From assembly GCA_030603565.1 (NCBI GenBank), contig JAUVXM010000002.1:2151-66150 (forward strand): a stretch of DNA of 64,000 nucleotides, written 5' to 3'. The translations under genes and the position numbers were made by a program. The first letter of the stretch is position 1; each line of letters begins with the position of its first letter. This DNA is from Candidatus Aminicenantes bacterium (GTDB lineage Bacteria; Acidobacteriota; Aminicenantia; Aminicenantales; Aminicenantaceae). Below are positions 1-9,188 of the stretch, piece after piece. The notes under the pieces are model-generated. The model had not been told where the DNA came from. It ran no database searches and saw only the letters and a list, made by a program, of their open reading frames with translations.

Positions 1-56
1 AAACCAATACCGCATTACAGATGAAAAATGCGGGGATTGAGTTTAAGGTGGTTTAA
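1..56 (+). CDS. mod: 3' end of Type III restriction-modification methyltransferase (Mod), partial
   Basis: Frame from nt 3 reads TNTALQMKNAGIEFKVV*, matching the typical Type III Mod C-terminus (..LKTNxxLQMKxxGIEFKxx); a cognate res gene lies at 3882. Confidence 0.7.
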   Translation, partial: TNTALQMKNAGIEFKVV

Positions 57-61
57 GAATA

Positions 62-733
62 ATGAGTTATAAAAGTGCACAATTGATCGACATAAAGGTT
101 GCCGAAGGTGACTATTTCCTCAATGAAATAAAAAATGTCAAATCTAATATTTTGATTGTCAACAGTTTGGTAAATGCCTTTGTTTCCTCATGTAGAAATA
201 TCACTTTTGCACTTCAATATGTCTTACATAACATTGAGGGGTTTCATGTTTGGTATAATGAAAAACAAGCATATATGAAAAATAATGCTTATTTTAATTT
301 TTTTAATGAATATAGGCGTTTGTCTATACATAAAGGGCAATATTTTATTAAATCTGGAGACATGAAAAATAGTAAAATATCATGGTATTTTGATACAATT
401 AAAAACATTCAATTTAATGATGATGTATTTATTGTCTGTAACAAATATTTTATTGAATTGCTACAACTAATATTTGATTGTTATCAAGAGTTTAAATTTA
501 CTCTAAGCGCTAAATGGTATTATACTCAAAATAATTTTACAATGTTAAATAAAACTATTTCTGAAGCTGAAAACGAATTGAGGTTTCCGACAAATTGGAC
601 TAAAATAAATGGCAATAAAGAAGAATTTCCTAAACGATGGGCTGTTTTAAGAAGAAATGTAACCAGCTGTGAAATAAATCATTTTTTCAAAATGTATCTT
701 AATAAATGTTTTAAAGAACCTGACGACATTTGA
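62..733 (+). CDS. Hypothetical protein, putative HEPN-like domain
   Basis: 223 aa, very AT-rich. Helical pattern NAFVSSCRNITFAL..GFHVWY followed by an Rx4H motif (YRRLSIH). Confidence 0.5.
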   Translation: MSYKSAQLIDIKVAEGDYFLNEIKNVKSNILIVNSLVNAFVSSCRNITFALQYVLHNIEGFHVWYNEKQAYMKNNAYFNFFNEYRRLSIHKGQYFIKSGDMKNSKISWYFDTIKNIQFNDDVFIVCNKYFIELLQLIFDCYQEFKFTLSAKWYYTQNNFTMLNKTISEAENELRFPTNWTKINGNKEEFPKRWAVLRRNVTSCEINHFFKMYLNKCFKEPDDI

Positions 734-775
734 AATATGTTGAGATAGAGTTTATATCAGTATAAGGACAAATAA

Positions 776-2416
776 ATGACTGAATCACCATTTAAAATGC
801 AGTTTGATCCTCAAACAATCAAACATCTTGGTGTACGAATGTATTCAAGGCTTGCACCCGCACTAGCCGAAATTATTTCAAATGCATATGATGCCGATGC
901 AAATAATGTCAGCATTGTTTTGACTGAAAAAAATGGAATTCCCAAAGAGATACGGATTGAAGATGATGGAACAGGAATCTCACATAACGAAATCAATAGC
1001 AAATTTCTAATAATTGGTAGAAATAGGCGTGATGATGAAGGGGACAAGCCTTCAAAAAAATACAATCGTTTGCCTACCGGTAAAAAAGGTCTTGGCAAAC
1101 TTGCTCTGTTTGGACTTGCCAAAACAATTACAATTTCAACAAGGCAATCTGGGAAACAAAATGAATTTGTATTAGACTGGGATGATTTAATGACAGCTAA
1201 AGATAGTTATCGACCTAGGGCAAATAGTATTAACACTGATACAAGTGCTGCCGATGGTACGGTTATTACTATGGAAGGGCTAAAAAGAAAAACGGCATTT
1301 GATTTAAATGAGTTAGCAGACAGTTTGTCTCGAATATTTATTTTTGATAACAATTTTAATTTGGTGCTTGAATCACCCTCAGGAGACAGAATCTTAATAG
1401 ATAATAAGAGAAAATACGGTCTACTTAATGAAGAATTTGAGTGGGATCTCGAATCCACATTTTTGGTACCTTCAGAATCTGAATATCACAGGAAAATAAA
1501 CGGTCATCTAATAACTTCGGAAAAACCAATTACCCCTTCTTCCGGTTTAAGAGGAATAACTCTTTTTTCGCGAGGAAAACTTGTAAATGCTCCAGAATTT
1601 TTCTCCAGTAGCACCTCAAGCCACTTTTTCCAATACCTTACTGGATGGATAAGTGTAGATTTTATAGATCTCTTAGATGATGATGTTATATCAACGAATC
1701 GTCAATCCATAGATTGGGAACATCCCGATATGACCAAATTAAGAAAATTTCTTTCAGGAATAGTTTCACAAGTTAATGCAGATTGGCGAAAGAGAAGAAA
1801 AGAAAAAAAAGCTGCTGATTTAAAGGAAAAAACAGGTATTGATGCAGAAAATTGGACAAATACTTTACCGGATGACGTAAAAGAGAACACCAAACGAATT
1901 ATAGAAACATTGGGTGGTGAAGATGCGCTTGAAAAATACACTCCCGTAATCAAAGCCCTTCATGATATTATTCCGGAATACCCCCTTCTTCATTGGCGAC
2001 ATTTGCACGATTACCTAAGAGAAAGAATCAAATCATATTACGAGCATAAGCAGTACGGGGATGCTGCAAGCCAAGGGGTTCAAATATATTGTGAGATAAT
2101 AAGAAAACTAACAGACAGAAAAGAGGACGGGACAGCTTTAGTCAATCGAATATTCGGGAGTAGCCCTTTTGATAGTCTCCCAGAGGTCCAATTGAATGAC
2201 TTAGACACAGAATCTAAGAAAAACATTCAGGAAGGGCAAGGCCATTTATCCAGAGGAGTAGTAACGGGCTTTAGGAACCCCATATCACACGGACCAATTG
2301 ACACCAATGTCCCTGATTTGTTTACTGAACTTGATTGTCTGAATATTTTAAGTCTAGTTTCATATCTAATAACTCGAATGGATAATGCCAAGGTGAATGC
2401 TTCTTCTGGTAGTTAG
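776..2416 (+). CDS. GHKL (MORC/HATPase_c_3) ATPase fused to C-terminal TIGR02391/Ymh-like domain
   Basis: GHKL boxes EIISNAYDA, EDDGTGI, GKKGLGK, GTVIT; S5-like GITLFSRGKLV; C-terminal DGTALVNRIFG..ESKKNIQEG..GFRNPISH. Confidence 0.85.
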   Translation: MTESPFKMQFDPQTIKHLGVRMYSRLAPALAEIISNAYDADANNVSIVLTEKNGIPKEIRIEDDGTGISHNEINSKFLIIGRNRRDDEGDKPSKKYNRLPTGKKGLGKLALFGLAKTITISTRQSGKQNEFVLDWDDLMTAKDSYRPRANSINTDTSAADGTVITMEGLKRKTAFDLNELADSLSRIFIFDNNFNLVLESPSGDRILIDNKRKYGLLNEEFEWDLESTFLVPSESEYHRKINGHLITSEKPITPSSGLRGITLFSRGKLVNAPEFFSSSTSSHFFQYLTGWISVDFIDLLDDDVISTNRQSIDWEHPDMTKLRKFLSGIVSQVNADWRKRRKEKKAADLKEKTGIDAENWTNTLPDDVKENTKRIIETLGGEDALEKYTPVIKALHDIIPEYPLLHWRHLHDYLRERIKSYYEHKQYGDAASQGVQIYCEIIRKLTDRKEDGTALVNRIFGSSPFDSLPEVQLNDLDTESKKNIQEGQGHLSRGVVTGFRNPISHGPIDTNVPDLFTELDCLNILSLVSYLITRMDNAKVNASSGS

Positions 2417-2430
2417 CAAAAGAGAAAAAG

Positions 2431-3459
2431 ATGAAAAAAAATAACATTTTAAATGCAATTGACCTTTTTTCCGGTTGCGGCGGTTTATCCGAAGGATTAA
2501 AACAAGCCGGTTTTAACGTTATTGCAGGTGTTGAAGTTGATAAAAACGCAGCTAAGGCGTACCGCATGAACCATACGGACACCGTTCTTTATGAGGATGA
2601 CATAAGAAAACTTGATTCTAATGAAATATTGAAGCTTCTTAACGGCAAACCCTTGCATCTTCTTGCCGGATGCCCCCCGTGTCAGGGTTTTTCGACAATA
2701 AGGAAACTAAATCGTAAATTGGCTGTTCCGGATGAAAGAAACAGTTTGATTAATGAATATTATAGATTTGTTAAGGAATTAAATCCGTTAACTATAATGC
2801 TTGAGAATGTCCCGAGTATTGTTGATTATACATTATTTAAAACTATCGCTCGAAAACTTAAAAAACTTGGTTACAATATTACTTATAAAGTCGTTAATGT
2901 TGCTGATTATTCCATTCCACAGCGACGGAAAAGATTGGTTTTGGTAGGCTCTAAAATATGCAAAATTGATATTGCATCAGGAACAAATACACTTACTACC
3001 GTTCGAGATGCTCTTGGTAAATTAAAAAATAATGTCAATGACGAGTTGCATAAAATTTATCCGAAACATACCGAACATATTCAAAAAATGATTTCATTAA
3101 TACCTAAAAACGGCGGTAGTAGAAAAGATTTACCGGAACAGTACACGTTGGAATGTCATAAAAAAAAGAATGTGGGATTTAAAGATGTATACGGAAGGTT
3201 GCGCTGGGATAGCGTATCTTCAACAATTACCGGCGGATGTCTGAATCCGTCAAAAGGAAGATTTTTACACCCGGATGAAGACAGATGCATTTCTGCAAGA
3301 GAAGCGTCATTATTACAAACCTTTCCGATTGATTACAAGTTTCCTACCGATATTCCAAAAGCCGAACTCGCGTTATTAATAGGTAATGCTCTCCCTCCTG
3401 AATTTAGCAGAATACAGGCGGAAAACATTTTTCGTCATATTGAAGAATGTTATGGCTGA
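2431..3459 (+). CDS. dcm: DNA (cytosine-5)-methyltransferase
   Basis: Motifs DLFSGCGG (I), GCPPCQGFS (IV), ENV (VI), QRRKR (VIII), REASLLQTFP (IX), IGNA (X). Confidence 0.95.
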   Translation: MKKNNILNAIDLFSGCGGLSEGLKQAGFNVIAGVEVDKNAAKAYRMNHTDTVLYEDDIRKLDSNEILKLLNGKPLHLLAGCPPCQGFSTIRKLNRKLAVPDERNSLINEYYRFVKELNPLTIMLENVPSIVDYTLFKTIARKLKKLGYNITYKVVNVADYSIPQRRKRLVLVGSKICKIDIASGTNTLTTVRDALGKLKNNVNDELHKIYPKHTEHIQKMISLIPKNGGSRKDLPEQYTLECHKKKNVGFKDVYGRLRWDSVSSTITGGCLNPSKGRFLHPDEDRCISAREASLLQTFPIDYKFPTDIPKAELALLIGNALPPEFSRIQAENIFRHIEECYG

Positions 3460-3865
3460 TATTTTTATCAAGGAAAAGCGCTCACAAATAATGAGTAGTA
3501 TTTCCGGAAAAGACACAAAACCGGAGATGATTATTAGAAAGGCGCTTTTTTCGGAAGGATATAGATATAGACTACATAGGAAAGATTTACCGGGTAAGCC
3601 GGATATTGTTTTTCCAAGCAAAAATAAAGTGATTTTTATTAACGGTTGTTTTTGGCACGGCCATAATTGTAAGAAAGCTGCTTTACCGGCAACCAATAAA
3701 AGTTTTTGGGAAAAGAAGCTAACAGGCAACAAAGAGAGAGATAAGCGGAATTTGGCAAAATTAAAAGCTATCGGTTGGAAAAGCTTGGTGATTTGGCAAT
3801 GTCAAATAAAAAAGAACACGCTTGAAGCTCAAATCAATAAGATAAAAGCATTCTTGGAAAAGTAA
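3452..3865 (+). CDS. vsr: Very short patch repair endonuclease
   Basis: Start reassigned to ATG 3452 (MADIF..RSQIMSSI..KDTKPE); LPGKPDIV, GCFWHGH, N..RD motifs; overlaps the MTase stop. Confidence 0.93.
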   Translation: MADIFIKEKRSQIMSSISGKDTKPEMIIRKALFSEGYRYRLHRKDLPGKPDIVFPSKNKVIFINGCFWHGHNCKKAALPATNKSFWEKKLTGNKERDKRNLAKLKAIGWKSLVIWQCQIKKNTLEAQINKIKAFLEK

Positions 3866-3881
3866 TAGGAATTCTCAATAG

Positions 3882-6506
3882 ATGAAACTCCACTTTGACC
3901 CAAACCAAAAGTTTCAGCACGATGCAATAAACTCGATTGTCGGCATATTTGAGGGACAACCTTTAAACCAGGGCGATTTCAGTTTTTCGATAAGTAGTGA
4001 AAGCTACATGTTTCAGGACGGTGGTGTTGGAAACAGACTTGAAATAAGCGAAGAACAGATTCTAAATAATGTTAAGGTAATACAGAAGAAAAATGAGTTA
4101 ATTGTTTCCGATAAATTGGACGGAATGAATTTTTCCATTGAAATGGAAACCGGAACCGGAAAAACTTATGTTTATCTCCGCACAATTTACGAATTGAATA
4201 AAAAATACGGATTTAAAAAATTCGTTATTGTTGTCCCCTCAATAGCCATTCGTGAAGGCGTATTAAAAAACCTTGAAATAACCTTTGAGCACTTTCAGAA
4301 TCTTTACGATAAGACGCCGCTTAATTTCGATGTTTACGATTCCAAAAGGGTTTCCAATTTAAGAAATTTTTCCATCAATAATAACATTCAGATCCTTGTT
4401 ATAAATATCGATTCCTTTGCCAAGGATGAAAACATAATCAATAAACCCAACGACAAACTGACCGGCAAAAAACCGGTAGAGTTTATCCAGGCAACCTGCC
4501 CGATTGTAATCGTGGATGAACCGCAGAATATGGAGACGGAGATCAGAAAAAAAGCAATTGATAACCTGAATCCGCTCTGCACTCTGCGCTATTCCGCCAC
4601 CCATATCAACCGTTACAATATGGTCTACAGCCTTGACCCGGTGAAAGCCTATGACATGGGGCTGGTCAAGCAGATAGAAGTTGATTCCATTGTCACGGAA
4701 AATGACTTTAATGAAGCATTTCTTTGCCTTGAAAAAGTAGCCGCAACAAAAACCCGCACTTCCGCTAGAATTAAAATAGATTTAAATACGCCTGACGGTG
4801 TTAAAAGGAAATCCGTTACCGCAAAGGTCGGAGATGATTTATACGATTTATCCAATAAAAGAGAGATTTATAAAAACGGATACATTATAAACGGTATTGA
4901 TGTTGCAGAAAATCTGATAGAGCTTTCTAACGGTGAAACAGTTTTTACAGGTGATACATTCGGCGGGCTTTCCGATGAGATCAGGAAGGTTCAGATTCGC
5001 AAAACAATTGAAGAACACTTTTTAAAAGAACGAAAGCTAAAAAATAAAGGTATAAAAGTCCTTTCTCTTTTTTTTATTGACCGGGTAGCCAATTACCGTG
5101 ATTATGATTTTGACGGCAATCCGGTTAAAGGCAAACTCGCCAAATGGTTTGAAGAAATATATACGGAATTATCTTCAAAACTCGCTTACAAAGATTTGAT
5201 TCCGTTTAATTCGGAAGAAGTCCATAACGGCTATTTTGCAGCTGATAAAAAAGGCAAATGGAAAGACACGAAGGGAAACACACAGGCAGACAATGATACT
5301 TTTAAGCTTATAATGAAAAACAAAGAAAGGCTTTTAGACACTGATGAACCGTTGAGGTTTATTTTCAGCCATTCCGCTTTGCGTGAGGGATGGGACAATC
5401 CCAATGTTTTTCAGATATGTACATTAAATGAAACGCAATCGGAACTTAAAAAGAGACAGGAAATAGGTAGGGGATTAAGGCTTTCGGTAAATCAGGATGG
5501 AATTCGTATACAGGACACCAATATTAACCGATTAACGCTTGTTGCCAATGAATCTTATGAAGATTTTGCCAAGCAGTTGCAGAAGGAAATAGAAGAAGAT
5601 TGCGGAGTATCATTTAAAGGCAGAATCAAAAATAAACGGAAAAGAACAACTGTCAAATACCGAAAAGGATTTGAACTGGATGAAAAATTCAAAGATATCT
5701 GGGACAAGATTAAATATCAAACCACCTATCGGGTTGAATACGATACCGCCGAACTTATTAAGAAAGCAGCAAAAACCGTTAATCAAATGCCCTCTACCGG
5801 AAAAGCGGTTATAAAAACAACAAAAACCGCACTTGAATTTGATGAAGCCGGTATTATTATGGAAACAAAAGCCTCTTATATGACATCACTTGACGGCATG
5901 TTTTTAATACCTGACATCCTTTTTTACATACAGGAAAGAACGGAACTTACACGTTCCACAATTTTTGAAATTCTTAAGAAATCCGGGAGAATAAGTGAAG
6001 TTTTAATTAACCCGCAGCTTTTTCTTGATAATGTCGTTACTGCCATAAAAGATGTTCTCACGGAACTGGTGATTGAAGGTATAAAATATGAAAAAATCGG
6101 CTTAAAAGAATATGAAATGCGGTTGTTTGAGGACTATGAAATACATATCAATGACCTGACATTTAAAATAAATAAGAAAGATAAAACCATTTACAGCAAT
6201 CTTTTTCCGCTTGACTCCAATGTTGAATATGAATTTGCCAGAGAATGTGAAAGCAGAGATGACATTGAATTCTATTTTAAGCTTCCCTTCCGGTTTAAAA
6301 TTAAAACACCAATCGGAAATTATAACCCTGACTGGGCTTTGATTAAAAAGAATGAAAAAACGGTTTACTTTGTCGCCGAAACCAAATCGGCAGGACAGGA
6401 ATTAAAAATAAGTGAAAAAAGAAAGATAAAATGCGGGTATGCTCATTTTAATGAATTTGAAGATGTTAAATATAGGCAAGTAGCGACAGTAGGAGAATTG
6501 GATTAA
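3882..6506 (+). CDS. res: Type III restriction endonuclease Res subunit
   Basis: METGTGKT, DEPQ, YSATH, ALREGWDNPNVF, QEIGRGLR helicase motifs; C-terminal YNPDW..FVAETK PD-(D/E)xK nuclease. Confidence 0.95.
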   Translation: MKLHFDPNQKFQHDAINSIVGIFEGQPLNQGDFSFSISSESYMFQDGGVGNRLEISEEQILNNVKVIQKKNELIVSDKLDGMNFSIEMETGTGKTYVYLRTIYELNKKYGFKKFVIVVPSIAIREGVLKNLEITFEHFQNLYDKTPLNFDVYDSKRVSNLRNFSINNNIQILVINIDSFAKDENIINKPNDKLTGKKPVEFIQATCPIVIVDEPQNMETEIRKKAIDNLNPLCTLRYSATHINRYNMVYSLDPVKAYDMGLVKQIEVDSIVTENDFNEAFLCLEKVAATKTRTSARIKIDLNTPDGVKRKSVTAKVGDDLYDLSNKREIYKNGYIINGIDVAENLIELSNGETVFTGDTFGGLSDEIRKVQIRKTIEEHFLKERKLKNKGIKVLSLFFIDRVANYRDYDFDGNPVKGKLAKWFEEIYTELSSKLAYKDLIPFNSEEVHNGYFAADKKGKWKDTKGNTQADNDTFKLIMKNKERLLDTDEPLRFIFSHSALREGWDNPNVFQICTLNETQSELKKRQEIGRGLRLSVNQDGIRIQDTNINRLTLVANESYEDFAKQLQKEIEEDCGVSFKGRIKNKRKRTTVKYRKGFELDEKFKDIWDKIKYQTTYRVEYDTAELIKKAAKTVNQMPSTGKAVIKTTKTALEFDEAGIIMETKASYMTSLDGMFLIPDILFYIQERTELTRSTIFEILKKSGRISEVLINPQLFLDNVVTAIKDVLTELVIEGIKYEKIGLKEYEMRLFEDYEIHINDLTFKINKKDKTIYSNLFPLDSNVEYEFARECESRDDIEFYFKLPFRFKIKTPIGNYNPDWALIKKNEKTVYFVAETKSAGQELKISEKRKIKCGYAHFNEFEDVKYRQVATVGELD

Positions 6507-6840
6507 GAAGCGTTTTCGCACATCGGATGCTACAGCGGAATAAAACGGGCTATCTCAAATATGACGAAAGGAAAAAGCATATATAACAAATCGTTAGAAC
6601 TCCGTTCGGAAGAACATCAGGAAAAAGTCTTAATCATTAAAAATGTCCCACGCTATCCAGAAATCATTGACAAAGGAACCAGCGCATTTCTGCACAATCC
6701 TGCCTTCGCCGCCTCCAACCGCATAAAATATGAATAATGTTCGGCTACAGGCCGCCCCATTTATTTAGGCCAAGCCAGTGAAATTTAGCTGAGATTGTCA
6801 TGAACAAAAAAAATTTGAATAAGATTTTGAAGAGTGTCTC

Positions 6841-8001
6841 TTATATACCACGATGCAGGCATGCAACCGGAAGTAGATGAACCTGATTAATTTGAGCATA
6901 TTCTGTTCCTGAGTAGAATAAATATTTTTGAACCGGACGTTTTAATTGCTTTTCAAATTCAATCAGATTATTGATGTCACGTTTAGACGGATTTTGAGTG
7001 GATTTGATTTCTATGGCATAAAGTTGATTTTCAGATTCAAAGATCAGGTCAATTTCACGTCCGGCTTTAGTTTTGTAGTAAAAAAATTGGTCTGTTTTAA
7101 TGAATCCCAGTTTTCTTCTTTTTTCCAGTTCTGCCAGGACAAAATTTTCAAACACTTGACCTTCAGTGATATTTGTATTAAAGCTTTTTATTATTCCAGT
7201 ATCAGAAAAATATGATTTTGCGGCTTTAACATATCGTTTAGCCGGACCATATTGATATCCATACAGCTTGAATATAAGCTGTGATTGAAGCAATGTATTT
7301 AAATATTTTTTTGTGGTGGGGTAGCTGATCCCGGCTTCTCTGGCAAAATTGGAGACCTCGAGATGTGATCCAATTGAGCGGATTAAATGATTAAAAATAG
7401 CATATAACCCTTCTATGTTTTCTATATTACTAAGCTGCATTAAATCGCGTGTAAAATATGTATTCTTATAATTTGTCAGAAGTTCGTATTTGTTCTCAGT
7501 TTTTGTCGTGGTGAGAATTTCCGGGAATTGGCCGTATAATATAGCTTCTTGTGTTTTTCTGTTTGCCTCTGCCAATGCCCTTAATGCAATTTGGTCATGG
7601 AAAATACTATGAGTATGACTGCCCTCATTTTCACCCCAACAAGCAGTTGGTAAGGAATACAGGTTGATCCGCCCGGCAAGTGTATCTGCTGTGGAATCAA
7701 GAAGACCTATTGAACTCGAACCTGTCATCAAAAAATGGGCTTTTTCATTGTCTATTGCATACTTGGCAGCAATGGTTAATTCCGGATACCTTTGAATCTC
7801 ATCTATAATTGCTCTGTCCCCCAATTGGGCTATAAATCCTTTTGAATCTTTTTTTGCCCAATTCAAGGCATCAAGGTCATCAAGAGTGATATAATTGTAA
7901 TCAGGAAATTGTGATTTTAATAATGTGGTTTTACCACATCTTCGCGGCCCTAGAATAAGGCAACTCTTATTTGTTTTTAACTCTATCCATCTTTTAAACA
8001 T
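6841..8001 (-). CDS. AAA+ ATPase (AAA_14) with DUF4143 / PD-(D/E)xK-like C-terminus
   Basis: GPRRCGKTT, IIDEIQ, TGSS, LAGR, FENFV..EL, EIDL..IEIK. Confidence 0.88.
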   Translation of the reverse strand: MFKRWIELKTNKSCLILGPRRCGKTTLLKSQFPDYNYITLDDLDALNWAKKDSKGFIAQLGDRAIIDEIQRYPELTIAAKYAIDNEKAHFLMTGSSSIGLLDSTADTLAGRINLYSLPTACWGENEGSHTHSIFHDQIALRALAEANRKTQEAILYGQFPEILTTTKTENKYELLTNYKNTYFTRDLMQLSNIENIEGLYAIFNHLIRSIGSHLEVSNFAREAGISYPTTKKYLNTLLQSQLIFKLYGYQYGPAKRYVKAAKSYFSDTGIIKSFNTNITEGQVFENFVLAELEKRRKLGFIKTDQFFYYKTKAGREIDLIFESENQLYAIEIKSTQNPSKRDINNLIEFEKQLKRPVQKYLFYSGTEYAQINQVHLLPVACLHRGI

Positions 8002-8093
8002 AGTTATAAAATAGCATGCCTATTTTGAAAGTCAAGTATTAATATTGACATGCTTAAATTAATTTTTATTTTTTTGCCACACTGACTTTTATC

Positions 8094-9188
8094 TTAGTCA
8101 TGTTTCCAATTCCTCCTAAAAATTAAGACACAAACAATCGACAATAAGTATGCTATACCCAGAAAGAGAAACCATTTACTATTTTCCCGGATATGTTGAT
8201 AAAGCTCCCCTTCTCCAGGTTGGGGCAGAGGTACCGGATCCCAGGGTAAGCCATATTCCTCAGCCAAACCATGGATAAAAAGCAGGTGAATAACAGGAAC
8301 CCCGCGAAAAGCCATGGCAAAGAGTAAGCCTCTTTTCTCGGAAGGCGGAAAATTATGAATATCCGTAAACCCGGGCTTTACTTTAAGGATCTCTTCATCC
8401 GTACCCATGTTTGATAGACTTCCTCCGATATTAATAAATGCCCGGATCTCAGCTTCGGCTGCAGCTGTATTATAGATCTGCATCTTCTTTTCTACATTTG
8501 TTTTCAGATCCGGTTCTTCAATAAAAAGCATTCCGCTCTGTTTTACAGCTTCTTTCAATATAGATCGCCCTTCAGGCAGCATGTTGTCTCCTGTATCCCG
8601 GTCTCCACCCAGAGAAAGGGCGACAGGTTTTACCTCGAATATTCCCTTCGTATCCAAACAGTCCTGAATTTTAAGCCAGTGAAAATGCGGGTCATTCGCA
8701 CCCCACTGCGAAGCCCCCAGAGAGCATATTACCAGAGGATTCAATCCCATCGCCTCAGCTGCTGAAAGTACTGCGATTATTAGCGCCGGAAAAGAGCCGG
8801 AAGCTCCCACGGCGATCGTATCCCCCCTTTTTACTCCTGCTTTTTTAAGCAGCAGCACAACTAACCCGGCAAAATTGGGATTGGTGGTCGTACGTTTTGC
8901 CTCCAGCTGCCCGAGCGAGGTCGTTATTTCCGAATATTCCCGTCCGATAAGGCCGGTCAGATTAGGATCACTCTTGTAATCCAAGCCGGAACCGTTTCGT
9001 CTGCGGCAGTCTGATACTGCTTCTGATGCATGAGCCATTAAGCGGGAAGCAGCGACCATATCCTTTGTCAAAGCATTTACATCTTTCAGAGGAGCAGTCC
9101 TGGCCAGAACATAAAAGACCAGACTTAACAAGAAAAGCCATATATATATCCGGGAACCCGGTTTATTTTCCCTCGCCGTACTATCCAC
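8094..9188 (-). CDS. pgsW: Poly-gamma-glutamate system protein (TIGR04332-like)
   Basis: DPNLTGLIG.E.S.ITTSLG.LEAKRTTTNPNFA, SGSFP, ASQWGAN, FINIGG motifs; N- and C-terminal TM helices. Confidence 0.85.
   Translation of the reverse strand: MDSTARENKPGSRIYIWLFLLSLVFYVLARTAPLKDVNALTKDMVAASRLMAHASEAVSDCRRRNGSGLDYKSDPNLTGLIGREYSEITTSLGQLEAKRTTTNPNFAGLVVLLLKKAGVKRGDTIAVGASGSFPALIIAVLSAAEAMGLNPLVICSLGASQWGANDPHFHWLKIQDCLDTKGIFEVKPVALSLGGDRDTGDNMLPEGRSILKEAVKQSGMLFIEEPDLKTNVEKKMQIYNTAAAEAEIRAFINIGGSLSNMGTDEEILKVKPGFTDIHNFPPSEKRGLLFAMAFRGVPVIHLLFIHGLAEEYGLPWDPVPLPQPGEGELYQHIRENSKWFLFLGIAYLLSIVCVLIFRRNWKHD

Follow-up and report, generated by a model that had tools for sequence, protein, structure and literature searches.

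In a 64,000-nucleotide stretch of DNA from Candidatus Aminicenantes bacterium (assembly GCA_030603565.1, contig JAUVXM010000002.1; the whole stretch, G000:C44:2151-66150, is hereafter the window), a gene for a GHKL-type ATPase ending in a HEPN domain is accompanied by genes for a C5 cytosine DNA methyltransferase and a Vsr very-short-patch-repair endonuclease, and the whole cassette is nested inside a complete Type III restriction-modification (R-M) operon. The reading we put first, tentatively and at somewhat less than even confidence, is that the ATPase-HEPN protein is a methylation-gated, ATP-switched HEPN RNase, and the cassette an abortive-infection or addiction module of the NmeAI type inserted in the Type III operon. 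The computed observations on which this reading is built are the gene order, the domains, the folds, the catalytic motifs, a near-constant methylase, a shared chassis on which the effector is exchanged, and the recurrence of the nesting.

The original prediction, made from the letters of the window without database searches, had described a co-directional cassette at 62-3865 containing a GHKL ATPase with a TIGR02391/Ymh-like end carrying an intact RNPISH motif, together with a C5 methylase and Vsr. Four tightly packed open reading frames (ORFs) in one direction do lie there, and the named genes were borne out by profile searches (scores for the methylase and Vsr are given in Table 1). In the 546-residue ATPase-HEPN protein, HATPase_c_3 of Pfam matches residues 26-144 (82 bits), Hypoth_Ymh (PF09509) matches residues 408-534 with 71.1 bits against a cut-off of 25, and TIGR02391 reaches 97.6 bits against a cut-off of 39.45; the RNPISH motif occupies residues 500-505. 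Among the PADLOC models, two of the REase_II type fall on the N-terminal part (98 and 89 bits), and Aga_HEPN (E 2e-13) and PD-Lambda-3_B on the C-terminal part. No PD-(D/E)xK, HNH, GIY-YIG or PLD domain was detected in scans with Pfam, NCBIfam and PADLOC, and SduA_C gave no match in the Pfam scan.

The residues expected of both active sites are conserved. Across alignments of 14 and 38 sequences, which extend down to 35% identity, the Bergerat motifs E32xxxN36, D63xGxG67 and G102KKGLGKL show no variation except at K103, a residue conserved in at least 90%; the remainder of the G102-K108 loop is invariant. Likewise, N501 and H505 of the HEPN motif do not vary in alignments of 38 and 33 sequences, and 30 of the 33 have R500, the other three having K. 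The HEPN domain as a whole is much more variable than the rest of the protein, the relative in survey locus L030 being 62% identical overall and 34% identical in this domain. Of the 8,000 proteins scored in a word-indexed search, 2,425 reached E <= 1e-5. The top 120 of these are 524-568 residues long and 65-100% identical to the window protein, each carrying PF13589 together with PF09509, and where they are named in the source annotation they are merely called 'TIGR02391 family protein'. Longer fused forms (957-2730 residues) were absent at E <= 1e-10, which with this search tool is weak evidence. Searched by sequence against solved structures, the full protein gave only marginal MutL and MORC2 rows at E >= 0.06, and the Ymh profile found no relative.

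An AlphaFold2 model of the protein (pLDDT 84.4, pTM 0.69) supports the assignment of the N-terminal half. Over the N-terminal 400 residues or so, Foldseek places it with MORC2 (9cdh, E 9e-14, 400 columns), MORC3 (5ix2), TRAP1 and the N-plus-middle part of Hsp90, at E values of about 1e-13, which supports a MORC/Hsp90-like GHKL-plus-transducer fold for the predicted structure. The C-terminal part was modelled separately (residues 400-546, pLDDT 85.3) and compared by VIA-align with 48,161 representative chains. Its four top matches are all HEPN domains, namely the HEPN domain protein AF_0298 (2hsb; Z 8.6, root-mean-square deviation 3.1 over 105 aligned residues), TT1696 (1ufb; Z 8.5, 3.4, 108), the sacsin HEPN domain (3o10; Z 8.2, 3.7, 113) and the archaeal HEPN homologue ST0689 (1wol; Z 7.9, 3.5, 103), while an HEPN/MNT toxin, AbiA, Csm6, HepS, LsoA and Csx1 follow in lower rows at Z 4.7-6.7. 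We assign the C-terminal domain to HEPN on this run of HEPN entries, on the profile scores from Pfam and TIGR, and on the motif. The membership of Ymh among the HEPN families, which the original prediction had left to be verified, is upheld by the structural comparison, and it is stated in passages of Anantharaman et al. 2013 (PMC3710099), where Ymh is counted among the HEPN families and is given the Rx4-6H motif, the RNase signature.

Complex prediction with two copies of residues 317-546 gave an ipSAE of 0.67 against 0.01 for the best control; in the calibration of the method, its mark was reached by 20 of 30 solved homomers and by one of 23 monomers. Contacts agreed between runs to at least 79%, and the pLDDT of the partner was at least 69. 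The predicted interface is symmetric and made by the two helices bordering the RNxxxH loop, at residues 478-504 and 515-533. Since HEPN dimers have already been solved, the score may rest on likeness to them. The prediction nonetheless points to a C-terminal part that dimerises on its own and so to a constitutive HEPN dimer. The original proposal that ATP-driven closure of a clamp assembles the composite HEPN site is, for the same reason, not favoured by the model.

The evidence for a methylase partner comes from a survey of 80 loci on contigs of a one-genome-per-species collection, each with a relative at 35-93% identity, the ORFs of which were searched with the window proteins. The loci belong to Cloacimonadota, Patescibacteria, Nitrospirota, Planctomycetota, many Proteobacteria and one Methanosarcinales archaeon. 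A co-directional C5 methylase gene lies within 150 bases of the ATPase-HEPN gene in 69 of the 80. The methylases of L019, L060 and L075 were at first missed through over-long ORF starts, and that of L068 lies 506 bases away on the opposite strand. Five loci (L035, L045, L063, L071 and L074) could not be evaluated because the contig ends inside the ATPase gene or within about 250 bases of it, so that a gene upstream would not fit. In L077 both methylase and Vsr are gone and the ATPase gene is truncated, so that L061 holds the sole intact ATPase-HEPN gene without an adjacent methylase. The count is thus 73 of 75 evaluable loci, and the C5 methylase is the one constant partner of the ATPase-HEPN fusion; co-occurrence of homologues with C5 methylases, on which the original prediction had staked itself, was found. 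The methylase precedes the ATPase gene in 59 of the 69 loci and follows it in 10, and Vsr is present in 25 of the 80. No DNase gene accompanies the methylase-ATPase pair across the surveyed family. A conserved third component was looked for and rejected, there being no neighbour cluster besides Vsr in more than six loci; the bigger clusters of small ORFs are antisense shadows inside the ATPase gene.

In L077, as in a copy from Neisseria gonorrhoeae (L083; 40.5% identical over the full length, with in-frame stop codons), methylase and ATPase-HEPN genes are both damaged, which fits a toxin that is tolerated only alongside its methylase. Beside the ATPase-HEPN gene of L061 stands another operon (L061:998-5226, minus strand), which encodes an 897-residue GHKL-like protein, a 512-residue protein and a C5 methylase 58% identical to that of the window. 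Another type of methylase (26-36% identical to the window's) is found beside a well-conserved ATPase-HEPN gene in L009, L016, L026, L032, L065 and L069; in L016 a fragment of a 58%-identical methylase is retained next to the new one, which suggests that the methylase was replaced.

The N-terminal part of the protein is one that is found in restriction enzymes. Residues 6-379 correspond to positions 1-398 of the 659-position BbrUII/HgiDII profile NF050001, with 223 bits, under its cut-off of 550. An exhaustive profile-free search of 1.84 billion representatives with the window protein returned 5,283 matches at E <= 1e-3, and the matches at E <= 1e-30 form 286 clusters at 50% identity, HEPN and DNase versions together. 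Among the best 150 of the 5,283 matches, a class of about 540-590 residues aligns with the whole query and a class of about 600-660 residues only with its residues 4-387. All five proteins of the long class that were scanned match the BbrUII/HgiDII profile end to end (3-654), with 296-341 bits, again under the cut-off. With one protein of about 630 residues from this class (P0183), the window protein shares 42% identity over residues 3-387 and no similarity beyond. The C-terminal 250 residues or so of the long class contain a conserved D...ExK block, absent from the window protein, which has HEPN instead, and match HSDR_N_2, SduA_C and NucS_C weakly in 9, 4 and 3 of 15 proteins, respectively; block and matches together identify this part as a PD-(D/E)xK nuclease. 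Judged by sequence, one ATPase chassis therefore bears either a DNase or a HEPN domain. A long-class protein on an Acinetobacter plasmid likewise follows a C5 methylase, 25% identical to that of the window. The same N-terminal chassis (positions 3-387, 240 bits) is matched by phrog_6203, a 644-position phage family of unknown function, so that HgiDII-like proteins are carried by phages too.

Around the cassette lies a complete Type III R-M operon, in which the order of genes, all on the plus strand, is mod, ORF223, GHKL-HEPN, dcm, vsr and res, with successive gaps of 5, 42, 14, -8 and 16 bases. The complete mod ORF (G000:C44:353-2206, 617 residues) starts about 1.8 kb upstream of the window and was for that reason invisible to the original prediction, which had asserted that no cognate restriction enzyme was present. 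This assertion stands for the inner four genes, and for the pair family-wide, but not for the operon, where a Res protein with a PD-(D/E)xK domain starts 16 bases past the Vsr stop. Res matches ResIII with 61.5 bits, RE_endonuc (PF19778) with 110.5 and PADLOC REase_III with 1024; against the NCBIfam equivalog NF012027 it scores 318 bits, under the cut-off of 564. The mod and res genes are not adjacent, being separated by 3.8 kb with four genes, and they are likewise separated in L003, L004 and L025, where the module again lies between them, as it does, in degraded form, in L077. In L025, Res is 84% identical to that of the window and the ATPase-HEPN protein 68%, with another HEPN subtype, and the latter falls into a different clade from the window's (FastTree, 73 sequences, midpoint root), so the frame seems to persist while the inner gene is swapped. 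In metagenome contigs of relatives, one match ends at window positions 52-56 and another restarts at 3879-3883 (one contig each), edges that coincide with the stop of mod and the start of res. No relative with an empty site, mod being joined straight to res, could be shown, as the loose end of X8 before 3879 is unlike the 3' end of mod.

Since the methylase is constant, the chassis is that of restriction enzymes sensitive to methylation, the catalytic residues of both ATPase and HEPN are constrained and no DNase accompanies the pair, we infer an R-M-like module with an RNase as its effector. In such a module the protein would be a dimer joined through its C-terminal HEPN domains, with the N-terminal GHKL and S5 halves forming an ATP-operated gate, on the same chassis that drives a PD-(D/E)xK DNase in BbrUII/HgiDII-like enzymes. 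The C5 methylase would mark the host DNA with 5-methylcytosine (5mC), and closure of the gate with ATP on DNA lacking this mark would switch on the HEPN RNase, which would stop growth or kill the cell. The result of such ATP gating, detection of unmethylated DNA and RNA cleavage would be abortive infection or, on loss of the module, post-segregational killing. Vsr would repair the T:G mismatches arising from deamination of 5mC and so limit the mutational cost of the mark. In the window, the module would add a second layer to the DNA cutting of the Type III system that encloses it. A broader formulation, in which R-M logic employs an RNase as its 'restriction' arm, effectors are interchangeable on an ATP-gated MORC-like chassis, 5mC-less DNA triggers abortive infection and the cassette makes two layers with the Type III enzyme, seems to us possible at about one chance in three. 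A forerunner of this idea in the original prediction, R-M logic with another effector, is retained as regards the chassis common to BbrUII/HgiDII, on which HEPN replaces PD-(D/E)xK, and is given up as regards a cassette free of any restriction nuclease.

Several points weigh against the methylation-gated RNase. Sequence recognition by BbrUII and HgiDII may reside in the nuclease domain, which the window protein lacks. The methylases of L009, L016 and L026 are only 29-30% identical to that of the window, beside ATPase-HEPN proteins that are 61-74% identical, and such divergence sits uneasily with a sensor of tight sequence specificity. The gene order of the window, with the toxin-like gene ahead of the methylase, is not the usual one for a module that has to establish itself safely. 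As to the fold, Foldseek returned nothing at E <= 0.001 for the model of residues 400-546, with 1ufb at rank 47, and VIA-align Z values of 8.2-8.6 are modest, helical bundles being able to reach them by common arrangement. Layering with the Type III enzyme is not general: within 8 kb, profiles made from Type III genes found a Res-like gene in only 11 and a Mod-like gene in 10 of the 80 loci, and coupling as a general rule was accordingly dropped. Finally, no experimental test of the HEPN version was found in a search of open-access literature.

PrrC has its place within a Type I R-M locus, and the nesting of the module between mod and res mirrors that arrangement. It could therefore be that the HEPN RNase is a guard, silenced by contact with an R-M enzyme (the Type III Mod/Res or the C5 methylase) and freed when that enzyme is disabled by an anti-restriction factor of a phage, methylation not being read by the ATPase-HEPN protein at all. 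This reading, which passages of Anantharaman et al. 2013 (PMC3710099) propose by analogy with PrrC and RloC, we regard as unlikely, though the least so of the alternatives. It draws on the nesting in four other loci of different phyla, including the L025 frame with its ATPase-HEPN protein of another subclade, and on the Type III-like mod/res genes beside the module in L021, L050 and L011 (in the first two, N6_N4_Mtase and ResIII of Pfam adjoin it). A Type III enzyme is nevertheless not the general partner, as 69 of the 80 loci have no Res-like gene within 8 kb; a conserved protein lock is hard to square with the replacement of the methylase by the distant ones of L009, L016 and L026; and PrrC and RloC have an ABC ATPase where this protein has an N-terminal GHKL domain.

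A true Type II restriction enzyme, cleaving unmethylated DNA with its HEPN domain or with an unrecognised site, appears to us distinctly improbable. The gene does occupy the position of a restriction gene beside M and V genes, its product has the N-terminal REase_II and BbrUII/HgiDII matches given above, and its counterpart is treated in excerpts of the literature as the 'restriction gene' of NmeAI, with the REBASE label R.NmeAIP. The BbrUII/HgiDII match is, however, limited to positions 1-398 of 659, and the PD-(D/E)xK part is absent; none of the four nuclease domains listed above was detected in the Pfam, NCBIfam and PADLOC scans; and the conserved RNxxxH is, in passages of PMC3710099, the signature of HEPN RNases. 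Very improbable is a MutL-like repair accessory, in which the GHKL protein would stimulate Vsr and HEPN would merely dimerise, with no role as toxin or in defence: the functional interaction of E. coli MutL with Vsr (cited in passages of Iyer et al. 2008, PMC2292703), the predicted MutL-like arrangement, with GHKL at the N-terminus and dimerisation at the C-terminus, and the tie of the module to 5mC speak for it, but Vsr is present in only 25 of the 80 loci, pure dimerisation would not require an invariant N and H and a nearly invariant R, and the family is patchy across phyla and found in defence-gene neighbourhoods.

The architecture to which the preferred reading, a methylation-gated HEPN RNase, applies is already described from sequence, in 2008 for NmeAI-like and in 2013 for paraMORC-Ymh proteins. 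In passages of Orlowski and Bujnicki 2008 (PMC2441816), R.HgiDII consists of an N-terminal GHKL domain with an unassigned C-terminal domain and putative R.NmeAIP of a GHKL N-terminus with a Hypoth_Ymh-like C-terminus, and in passages of Iyer et al. 2008 (PMC2292703) paraMORC families are defined that share R-M operons with genes for cytosine methylases, for Vsr and for SF2 helicases. The Neisseria NmeAI system comprises, according to excerpts of PMC3787668 and PMC7973814, one gene each for a methylase, for restriction and for patch repair, the target of M.NmeAI being CCGG; no DNA cleavage data for R.NmeAIP were found in the excerpted open-access literature on NmeAI. With its C5 methylase, GHKL-Hypoth_Ymh 'restriction' gene and Vsr, NmeAI as there described is like the window, whereas its order is M-R-V against R-M-V and no Type III operon surrounds it. 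The trailing 'P' of R.NmeAIP we take to be the REBASE mark for a putative enzyme. The N. gonorrhoeae copy, which may be the NmeAI orthologue, has split dcm-like ORFs upstream and, downstream, an intact-looking 140-residue ORF, taken as vsr; its record is chromosome-sized (2.17 Mb) and filed among plasmids.

The paraMORC-Ymh fusions of Anantharaman et al. 2013 (PMC3710099) have exactly the architecture of the window protein, are 'embedded in R-M system gene neighborhoods' and are predicted RNases and proposed functional analogues of PrrC/RloC; the passages do not single out the constancy of the C5 methylase or the HgiDII chassis, and the supplements may list neighbourhoods. With a putative R.NmeAIP of 2008 and the RNase proposal of 2013 in print, as these excerpts have it, the idea of the original prediction is not new. 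What is added here is the count of methylase constancy, the exchange of DNase for HEPN on one chassis, the support for the HEPN fold with the predicted dimer, and the recurrent nesting in Type III operons. BbrUII and HgiDII (NF050001) have the same chassis of GHKL, S5 and linker and, in the sources as excerpted, C5 methylase partners (M.HgiDII, M.BbrUII), with a C-terminal PD-(D/E)xK in place of HEPN. In PrrC/RloC, an NTPase with a C-terminal HEPN-type RNase is encoded in an R-M locus as a suicidal back-up (passages of PMC3710099), but that NTPase is ABC/Rad50-like and the window protein has GHKL with a C5 methylase as constant partner, so that the likeness is one of analogy only. VcSduA, a paraMORC3-type protein (GHKL with a DUF4263 nuclease; Shedu type I-D), needs its ATPase and nuclease residues for phage defence (excerpts of PMC12137116); set beside the window protein by description, it has a C-terminal SduA_C/DUF4263 nuclease where the latter has HEPN. 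Sacsin and Tiamat similarly combine GHKL-type ATPase modules with a C-terminal effector or HEPN, and weak P_loop_sacsin/SACS matches were obtained in our analysis. Effector swapping on a GHL chassis has been described for Tiamat, which, in the source as excerpted, carries PD-(D/E)xK (DUF3883) and has mostly adenine methylase neighbours; sacsin is eukaryotic with three ATPase repeats, and both fall into a different GHL clade in the excerpted tree of a preprint.

In annotation the gene pair passes for a Type II restriction system or simply for a 'TIGR02391 family protein', and it is widespread, the 80 loci spanning many bacterial phyla and one archaeon. Were the protein a methylation-gated RNase, an entire class of R-M annotations would be mistaken, methylation of DNA would turn out to license a suicide response directed at RNA, and a tractable bacterial model would be available for a GHKL gate that couples the state of DNA to an effector, eukaryotic MORC relatives being readers of chromatin marks. 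The finding would be routine if the protein proved to be a plain DNase or to act in repair. The comparison with HgiDII, in which the effector is swapped on one chassis, gives a clean experimental design, and the mechanism is easily testable.

Table 1. Features of the nested cassette and its Type III frame (positions counted from the first letter of the window)
Feature	Position	Strand	Basis or remark
Type III-like mod, 3' end	1..56	+	stop codon 54-56; DPPY motif; N6_N4_Mtase 120 bits
ORF223, accessory gene	62..733	+	lead only: phage lambda Ea47 family PF26900
Predicted paraMORC-type GHKL ATPase + S5-like transducer + basic helical linker + C-terminal Ymh-family HEPN, 546 residues	776..2416	+	profiles, motifs, model
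Ymh/TIGR02391 HEPN domain, residues 408-537	1997..2386	+	PF09509, TIGR02391, VIA-align
RNPISH (Rx4H HEPN motif), R500-H505	2273..2290	+	sequence, alignments; predicted dimer interface
C5 cytosine DNA methyltransferase, 342 residues	2431..3459	+	197 bits; PCQ, ENV, QRRKR, GNA motifs
Vsr very-short-patch-repair endonuclease, 137 residues from ATG 3452	3452..3865	+	112 bits; overlaps methylase stop by 8 bases
Type III Res, 874 residues: SF2 helicase + C-terminal PD-(D/E)xK endonuclease domain	3882..6506	+	ResIII, PF19778, PADLOC REase_III

Among the remaining genes of the cassette, Vsr is a nickase with a restriction-endonuclease fold. The product of ORF223 drew no match from Pfam, NCBIfam, PADLOC or PHROG. 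Its family is rare, with only eight relatives in a set of 5.8 billion proteins. The lead towards the Ea47 family comes from a PF26900 label on one 44%-identical relative and an atlas feature score of 0.95 to PF26900 clusters, and the homologue in L020 has a PHROG match at E 0.004 pointing the same way; the papers listed on Ea47 assigned it no function. Only two of the 80 related loci, L003 and L020, have ORF223; in L020 a 34%-identical homologue (L020:6118-6819) lies just upstream of the dcm-ATPase pair with no Type III genes there, an arrangement suggesting that ORF223 may belong to the module rather than to the Type III frame. A HEPN assignment for ORF223 was considered on account of an RRLSIH stretch and rejected, the H not being kept in the L020 homologue and family searches giving no support.

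A scan of the operon for promoters and terminators was uninformative: it gave 23 promoter-like sites, where shuffled sequence averaged 22.1, and 4 terminator-like ones, where the average was 4.2. Only one RNA-library run matched, and its single contig covers the res gene of a relative at about 96%, with no bearing on transcription of the cassette. The next gene after res (6841-8001, minus strand) encodes a 386-residue ATPase with AAA_14 and DUF4143, which matches the PADLOC candidate system PDC-S01 (257 bits), and similar proteins (28-30% identity) are found near the module in L034, L050 and L055. Across window positions 1-8500 the guanine-plus-cytosine fraction is 0.27-0.41 in bins of 500 bases, against 0.44-0.50 in most bins of the flank at 8.5-13 kb, and this AT-richness of the operon is consistent with horizontally acquired DNA.

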